64,000 nucleotides of DNA, taken from assembly GCF_045037415.1 (NCBI RefSeq), contig NZ_CP173438.1; one strand, written 5' to 3'. Below are positions 15,036 to 15,790 of this stretch, in pieces; the first letter of the stretch is position 1; each line of letters starts with the position of its first letter. Position numbers and translations under genes: made by a program. Below the pieces are notes generated by a model that was given only the letters and a program-made list of their open reading frames with translations, had not been told where the DNA came from and did no database searches. The stretch is from Escherichia coli (lineage in GTDB: Bacteria; Pseudomonadota; Gammaproteobacteria; Enterobacterales; Enterobacteriaceae).

Positions 15036-15403
15036 CTATGCTGACACAGGGGGGTTATTGAGTGATCTCCTTTCATGAAAATACGCAGTATCAACCACAC
15101 AGAGGATTATGTAATGACCAAAAATCATTCATTTTTAGAACAACAGATAGCTACATTTGGTGCAGCACTAAATGGGGGAAATCAACCGCAATCTGAGTAC
15201 ATAGAAGCCTTCTCAAAATCATTTAAAGGACTAGAAACACAAATTAATATTTGGGAAACCTTTATTGTCAATAGCACAAATGTTAATCAAGACGACGCAA
15301 TGCTTTTTCCTTAACCATATCAGAGCAATATCTACACTACACCCATAAATCAACCGAAATAGAACAGCTCCGCTACTTCTACATAGCACAAAAAATTGCA
15401 GAC

Positions 15404-15790
15404 TTGTTCTGGCTGAACAACGTTGCACATAGAGGTAAAAACTCTGAAGGCTACCCAGGTCATTTTGGTTGTCGTGTAAGGCAAAGAAACAAAAAACTCG
15501 AAATTTTCTGGGTTTACAACGAGTTTAAACCTAAAAAGAATTCTGACAAATACCAGGTGATCAGCCATTACCTCCCCCGTGAGGGCAATTATCGCTATTC
15601 ACAAAGCACCTTTACCCGAGCACAAGATTGGGAAAAATCGGTGATTACTGCTGTTGAAGATGCTTTCTCAATAATCCGCAGAGCCAACTCAAATCTAATG
15701 CGGGTTAGACAACTGTGCCGTTGGAATGACACCAATCTATTCAAAATGACAGGCGATATCGACGATTTTAAGATGGATAATCCTTTATAG
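15404..15790 (+). CDS. Hypothetical protein (128 aa); may be the 3' part of a frameshifted gene with ORF 15075-15314
   Basis: ORF only; no motif recognised. Confidence 0.25.
   Translation: MFWLNNVAHRGKNSEGYPGHFGCRVRQRNKKLEIFWVYNEFKPKKNSDKYQVISHYLPREGNYRYSQSTFTRAQDWEKSVITAVEDAFSIIRRANSNLMRVRQLCRWNDTNLFKMTGDIDDFKMDNPL

Follow-up and report, generated by a model that had tools for sequence, protein, structure and literature searches.

We found that two short open reading frames (ORFs) in Escherichia coli are very probably the remains of one mobI(M) gene, now a pseudogene at positions 15114 to 15790 on the plus strand of the window (the whole 64,000-nt stretch of DNA that we analyzed). On this reading the pseudogene is a relic of a mobilizable island of the MGIVchHai6 type, and its promoter and oriT have been lost. 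An earlier note on this DNA had placed two codirectional ORFs, at 15075 to 15314 and 15404 to 15790, between an IS3-like remnant and rhuM, and we found both as described. The note also called them AT rich, which is borne out by a GC content of 0.38 to 0.41 in the ORF region versus 0.46 to 0.49 in the flanks. Our own observations are the homology to mobI, the frameshift and breakpoints, the missing mobility backbone, and the colinear intact islands. The gene family and the island family were both known before, with experimental work published on close relatives, and RefSeq already names the 3′ half of the gene mobI.

The two ORFs match the N- and C-terminal parts of MobI

The first ORF (ORF1; 15075 to 15314, plus strand) starts at an ATG and encodes 79 amino acids (aa), and the second (ORF2; 15404 to 15790, plus strand) starts at a TTG and encodes 128 aa. 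They lie on the same strand in different reading frames. The earlier note had seen no recognizable motifs in either and had proposed a profile search. That search contradicted it: ORF2, which encodes the C-terminal MobI domain, matches Pfam MobI (PF19456) with an E value of 9.3e-28 and 97.1 bits (cutoff, 26.6) over profile positions 12 to 116 of 116. The same domain is present in the homologues. When the 157-aa and 79-aa products were scanned against NCBIfam, the MobI model was not matched, and the only match, to PRK13672, was below threshold.

A protein search with the extended frame returned homologues of 223 to 249 aa at 87 to 90% identity, in which ORF1 corresponds to the N termini and ORF2 to the C termini, in colinear order. 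ORF1 itself is about 90 to 100% identical to the N termini of MobI homologues 223 to 249 aa long. Together with the Pfam match, this argues that neither ORF arose by chance. The earlier note had allowed that the ORFs might be spurious if no homologues existed anywhere; there are many homologues, and experiments have been done on one of them.

A single missing T separates the two ORFs

We located the break between the two ORFs in a run of T's at 15304 to 15308 (plus strand), where the window has five T's (T5) and intact relatives have six (T6). In a nucleotide alignment, the window shows a single-base gap relative to two intact loci, L002 and L004 (columns 792 to 797). T6 is present in L002, L003, and L004, and T5 was found in all 10 E. 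coli loci checked. Where intact proteins read ...DDAMLFSLTISEQYL..., the window reads ...DDAMLFP*, because the shortened run creates a TAA stop at 15312 to 15314.

We found that putting one T back yields a 678-nt ORF of 225 aa that is colinear with two 225-aa homologues (P0003 and P0004) and with the MobI proteins of L005 and L007. The mobI frame is open from 15287, upstream of the TTG at 15404, and overlaps the 3′ end of ORF1 by 27 nt. Translation of this frame showed that its first canonical start is the TTG at 15404. Judged by sequence, then, the two ORFs are the halves of one mobI gene broken by a 1-nt deletion in a T run, and the earlier note's suggestion of one frameshifted gene was right.

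The 5′ end of ORF1 is not native. Its ATG at 15075 falls within the terminal inverted repeat (15054 to 15087) of an IS3-family remnant. Thus, codons 1 to 13 of ORF1 are chimeric, and the native start codon is the ATG at 15114, from which ORF1 carries the 66 N-terminal codons of mobI. A Shine-Dalgarno sequence, GAGGA, precedes the native start at 15102 to 15106. The combined length of about 230 aa given in the earlier note is close to the 225 aa of the restored protein.

The restored protein is 86 to 92% identical to its close relatives (P0002 to P0006). It carries a further change, L124Q, at a column that is invariant among 15 aligned homologues, some of which are only 37% identical to the restored protein. 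Pairwise dN/dS values between the restored gene and intact relatives were 0.15 to 0.37, with no clear elevation, and do not separate relaxed from purifying selection. We attribute this to the fact that most of the divergence among alleles predates the inactivation and that the family is mosaic.

Neither half is expected to function as MobI

For the function of MobI and the inactivity of N-terminally truncated constructs, we rely on the literature. The mobIM gene of MGIVchHai6 from Vibrio cholerae HC-36A1 encodes 225 aa from ATG118 of ORF 84, whose product is 27% identical to MobIC (Rivard, Colwell & Burrus 2020, mSphere, PMC7449626). Islands of this kind are mobilized by IncC plasmids, and deletion of mobIM lowered MGIVchHai6 mobilization about 2,700-fold (PMC7449626). 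Constructs that start at the +304 ATG or the +409 TTG fail to complement (PMC7449626). A later preprint reports that oriT is recognized by MobI, which interacts with a C-terminal domain of the TraI relaxase.

In length (225 aa) and start context, the restored window protein agrees with MobI(M) of MGIVchHai6. To map the published alternative starts, we used the close relatives L005 and L002 in place of MGIVchHai6; of the five offsets, +31, +118, +304, and +409 matched there and +106 did not. Position +304 corresponds to the ATG at 15300 of the window (M63), and +409 corresponds to the TTG at 15404 (L98 of MobI(M)), which is exactly where ORF2 begins. The intact N-terminal region that the orthologue needs for activity is interrupted in the window by the deletion at 15304 to 15308. 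Judging from the experiments on this orthologue, about 90% identical, neither half would on its own be able to do MobI's job. Since the truncated orthologue constructs do not support mobilization, the window gene is probably dead.

MobI(C) of IncC plasmids and MobI of the SXT/R391 ICEs have the PF19456 domain in common with the window copy and, according to the literature, the family's role as the oriT-recognizing partner of the MOBH12 relaxase TraI. They are distant relatives, however, and belong to self-transmissible elements, whereas the window copy derives from a hitchhiking island and is inactivated.

Current RefSeq/PGAP annotation takes the locus for two genuine small genes, one for a 66- to 79-aa protein and one for a short MobI-domain protein with an ATA or TTG start. 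PGAP calls both as intact coding sequences (CDSs), 15114 to 15314 as "hypothetical protein" and 15317 to 15790 or 15404 to 15790 as "MobI(A/C)", and both ORFs are 100% identical among E. coli carriers. We ascribe that identity to recent common descent, the copies having the same IS junction. Against two genes, every intact relative has both parts in one ORF and the join differs by one T, the second part has no canonical start of its own between 15287 and 15404, and orthologue constructs from M63 or L98 give no mobilization. We therefore regard two genuine genes as very unlikely and take the two ORFs to be one broken mobI.

An IS3-family end replaces the promoter, oriT, and mobility genes

The IS3-family remnant upstream of mobI spans 14147 to 15087 on the minus strand and contains an orfA-like helix-turn-helix (HTH) ORF at 14658 to 15035. 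Homology to an uninterrupted copy of this IS in strain SMS-3-5 runs from window position 14147, and hundreds of other E. coli IS copies end at query positions 388 to 390, which are window positions 15087 to 15089. On the other side, blastn homology with islands of the L005, L007, and L016 types starts exactly at 15088; over V. cholerae, Logan, and metagenomic islands (L005, L007, and L002 among them), its onset lies at 15088 to 15099. This places the junction at 15087|15088, 26 bp upstream of the mobI ATG. The native upstream sequence is reduced to these 26 bp (15088 to 15113, plus strand), which include the GAGGA.

In MGIVchHai6, the AcaCD-responsive promoter P84 lies within the 117 bp before ATG118, and oriT is a 49-bp core directly upstream of ORF 84 (PMC7449626). 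In the window, which keeps 26 of the 117 bp, the IS3-family end takes the place of oriT and the AcaCD-dependent promoter as well as of int, xis, and genes 85 and 86. The palindrome TGCCCAAAAAGGGCA of the relatives' P84 region, a putative AcaCD box, is missing from both the window and 10 E. coli loci, and the same holds for the sequence at the position of the published oriT core. Searches by blastn, blastn-short, and pattern did not find the oriT intergenic region in the window. Similarly, blastn and tblastx searches with positions 5848 to 10046 of L005 gave no match in the window or in the 10 E. coli remnant loci, and neither the window nor these loci show any trace of int, xis, 86, 85, or the intergenic region. 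A promoter and terminator scan found no sigma-70-like promoter upstream of 15114; weak consensus matches occur inside the gene only, and the scan speaks neither for nor against expression. The trmE att core (TTCTGTATCGGGAAGTAA-like) is absent from the window at up to three mismatches, so the original ends of the island cannot be placed.

Further upstream, we observed a perfect tandem duplication of a 1,547-bp unit, at 10934 to 12480 and 12481 to 14027. Each unit consists of a copy of ISEc45 (IS110-like) plus 97 bp of the IS66/ISEc43 transposase gene into which it is inserted. E. coli strain 219 has a single copy of the unit and is otherwise identical over the region. The duplication could have arisen by unequal crossover or through an IS110 tandem intermediate, or it could be an assembly artifact.

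The same broken gene recurs in E. coli

We searched 5,426 complete E. coli genomes with a probe spanning gene 85, the intergenic region, and mobI. Matches occurred in 76 genomes, and 71 of these fell in the 90 to 95% identity band of the remnant. Among the remnant matches listed (26 of 71 records), all 26 began at the same breakpoint and spanned 703 nt against 704 nt of the query, the difference being the 1-nt deletion. In each of the 10 E. coli loci that we read base by base, we found T5 and an identical IS junction. The only one of the 5,426 genomes with the backbone was strain 1585m1. We conclude that the uniform T5 and IS junction exclude sequencing error and phase variation and imply a single ancestral event.

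An error would leave the gene really intact, and single-base homopolymer errors are common with some sequencing technologies. The same T5 was nevertheless read in 10 independently assembled E. coli genomes, and the 703-nt span recurs in all 26 of the remnant matches listed from complete genomes. We give a homopolymer sequencing or assembly error next to no credence.

The T run might also be a regulated switch that gives full-length MobI in some cells by programmed −1 frameshifting, transcriptional slippage, or phase variation. A T5 homopolymer is a slippage-prone type of sequence, and the two frames overlap by 27 nt. However, intact members of the family are kept in frame by T6, so frameshifting is not a family trait. 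The ORF1 frame reads CTT TTT CCT TAA, in which CTT TTT C does not fit the X XXY YYZ pattern of a slippery heptamer. No T5/T6 polymorphism was seen, all inspected E. coli copies being T5. Even if full-length MobI were made, it would find no oriT in cis, int and xis having been lost as well. A switch is extremely unlikely in our view, and we retain the reading of an inactivated mobI gene.

We also observed that the block made of the IS3 end, the mobI remnant, rhuM, a Kiwa-like pair, hsdRSM, and IS1 has different flanks in SMS-3-5 (L001), in eight other loci (L008 to L015), and in the window. Among them are a selC island carrying tia and a gene for a phosphoethanolamine transferase, a leuX island (SMS-3-5), positions next to an autotransporter gene and next to a cytochrome b562 gene, and others. 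The same block in different flanks implies that it was moved between islands after its own mobility genes were lost.

Separately, mobI has decayed independently in another lineage, where a 121-aa product (P0025) is frameshifted after "...YFYIAQK". A few E. coli genomes carry short 3′ mobI fragments (H92 and H93), which share 98 to 99% identity with the L007 allele.

Intact related islands are colinear with the window

Islands organized with a full backbone were found in V. cholerae, a Logan assembly, Plesiomonas, and E. coli 1585m1. The intact islands have a stereotyped order: trmE, int, xis (HTH_17), 86, 85, an intergenic region, mobI, rhuM, and variable defense cargo. The genes that follow xis encode a DUF927 protein and a small HTH protein and are divergent from mobI across an intergenic region of about 0.5 kb, and rhuM is convergent with mobI.

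An island at trmE in a Plesiomonas shigelloides metagenome-assembled genome (L016/L017) has a gene order, mobI-rhuM-kwaB-kwaA-hsdR-hsdS-hsdM-RelB-like gene, that is identical to that of the window. By blastn, the reverse complement of L016 aligns with window positions 15286 to 21635 at 88% and 22833 to 25526 at 89%. The island at mnmE in E. coli 1585m1 (L020) is 98.8% identical over window positions 16878 to 22189 and agrees in gene order as far as hsdS, where that locus ends (window position 22189). Its mobI-rhuM segment is only 83% identical to the window, in contrast to the 98.8% of the cargo, which makes the island family mosaic in backbone and cargo. Both islands keep int, xis, 86, 85, and the intergenic oriT region, and the window does not. 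Their mobI is in frame, a 194- to 197-aa allele with a shorter N terminus, whereas the window has a different allele.

Compared with MGIVchHai6 and the group A trmE islands, the window has the same convergent rhuM and type I restriction-modification (R-M) cargo after mobI. It differs from MGIVchHai6 in that its mobI is frameshifted (T5 rather than T6) and carries L124Q; in that P84 and oriT have given way to the IS3 end and 85, 86, xis, and int are missing; and in that the copy lies inside a selC-associated island rather than at trmE.

We also noted that the hsdS segment of the window at 21635 to 22833 has just a central 183-bp block in common with that of the Plesiomonas island and is about 99% identical to that of 1585m1 as far as window position 22189. 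This is the usual pattern of target-recognition domain swapping between otherwise colinear islands.

The stranded fragment keeps its defense cargo

The stranded fragment of the MGIVchHai6-type island runs from 15088 to 25526. Its left side is cut by the IS3 remnant, and on the right, homology ends about 70 to 130 bp before IS1. It lies inside a selC-associated island, with tRNA-Sec at 32525 to 32619 and yicJ beyond. All of its cargo ORFs are full length and are encoded on the minus strand. The first is an intact rhuM (15848 to 16897; Pfam RhuM, E = 1e-113; PADLOC PDC-S05), which is about 87 to 88% identical at the nucleotide level to those of L005 and L007 and is a conserved neighbor of mobI in the island family. 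It is followed by an intact kwaB-like (DUF4868-like) gene (16918 to 17760; PADLOC KwaB, 7.7e-14) and an intact kwaA-like gene (17760 to 18314; PADLOC KwaA, 1.3e-15; NCBIfam KwaA, 1e-5). Next come intact type I R-M genes, hsdR (18314 to 21550), hsdS (21550 to 22836), and hsdM (22836 to 24815), and an intact RelB-like gene of 168 aa (24883 to 25389).

Several side observations concern these genes. RhuM matches the PADLOC candidate defense family PDC-S05 with an E value of 9e-167; the MGIVchHai6 study also noted rhuM beside mobIM and described the molecular function of RhuM as undefined (PMC7449626). The Kiwa-like pair between rhuM and hsdR is annotated as "hypothetical" or, in some records, as "ATP F0F1 synthase synthase", and it has close homologues in Plesiomonas, Aeromonas, Shewanella, and Vibrio. 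The gene at 24883 to 25389 is annotated as a RelB/DinJ-family antitoxin without a visible toxin partner. It lies directly upstream of hsdM, a position conserved in the Plesiomonas island, and its product may regulate the R-M operon instead of acting as an antitoxin.

The earlier note had proposed that the two ORFs could be a decayed accessory gene of the R-M module. The gene is decayed, but it is the mobI of the island's mobility backbone rather than an R-M accessory. It is true that mobI adjoins the R-M cluster and that the order from mobI and rhuM to hsdRSM recurs in many genomes. The demonstrated role of the MobI family, however, is oriT-dependent mobilization. In other relatives, mobI is tied to quite different cargo, namely genes for a reverse transcriptase and for an AAA_13 protein and R-M systems of other families, whereas its link to the 85-86-xis-int backbone is constant. 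Thus, the co-occurrence of mobI and R-M genes is that of backbone and cargo, not of a functional module, and it reflects common descent from one mobile element instead of a shared function. An R-M accessory gene is almost certainly the wrong description. As far as gene order and homology go, rhuM, the Kiwa-like pair, the type I R-M genes, and the RelB-like gene are the cargo of an island whose backbone held mobI.

Discussion

How the intact gene works is known. An intact island of this type is under the control of an IncC plasmid, whose activator AcaCD switches on mobI and xis. MobI, an auxiliary relaxosome protein, then recognizes the oriT just upstream of its own gene and recruits the plasmid's TraI relaxase, and the excised island is transferred through the type IV secretion system of the IncC plasmid. 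In the E. coli copy, three changes would have inactivated this pathway. With T5 in place of T6 at 15304 to 15308, the gene of 225 codons is broken into an N-terminal part of 66 codons and a C-terminal part that holds the MobI domain. An IS3-family element 26 bp from the start codon has replaced the promoter, oriT, 85, 86, xis, and int. The third change, L124Q, affects a residue that is invariant in the 15 aligned homologues. The defense cargo has survived, stranded within the selC-associated island.

We infer that in this host the remnant has no function and is not expressed. An outward promoter in the IS end, or read-through, could nevertheless transcribe the mobI fragments. There is a slim chance, in the same range as that of two genuine genes, that a 128- to 157-aa MobI fragment made from an IS-borne or read-through promoter acts as a decoy on the MobI-binding domain of IncC TraI or as a competitor of MobI(C), or that rare T5-to-T6 slippage gives a MobI that acts in trans on the oriT of other islands. 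If the decoy were real, it would mean less IncC transfer from these E. coli strains and a domesticated fertility inhibitor, with a logic like that of CtiC of SGI1.

The mobI relic implies no new mechanism. It does bear on annotation: the "hypothetical" 5′ half and the "conjugative transfer protein MobI(A/C)" 3′ half should be merged into one pseudogene, and the label "mobI" is not evidence that this E. coli island can be mobilized by IncC plasmids. The locus is an example of how the defense cargo of a trmE island can become stranded in unrelated selC and leuX pathogenicity islands after IS-mediated loss of the backbone.
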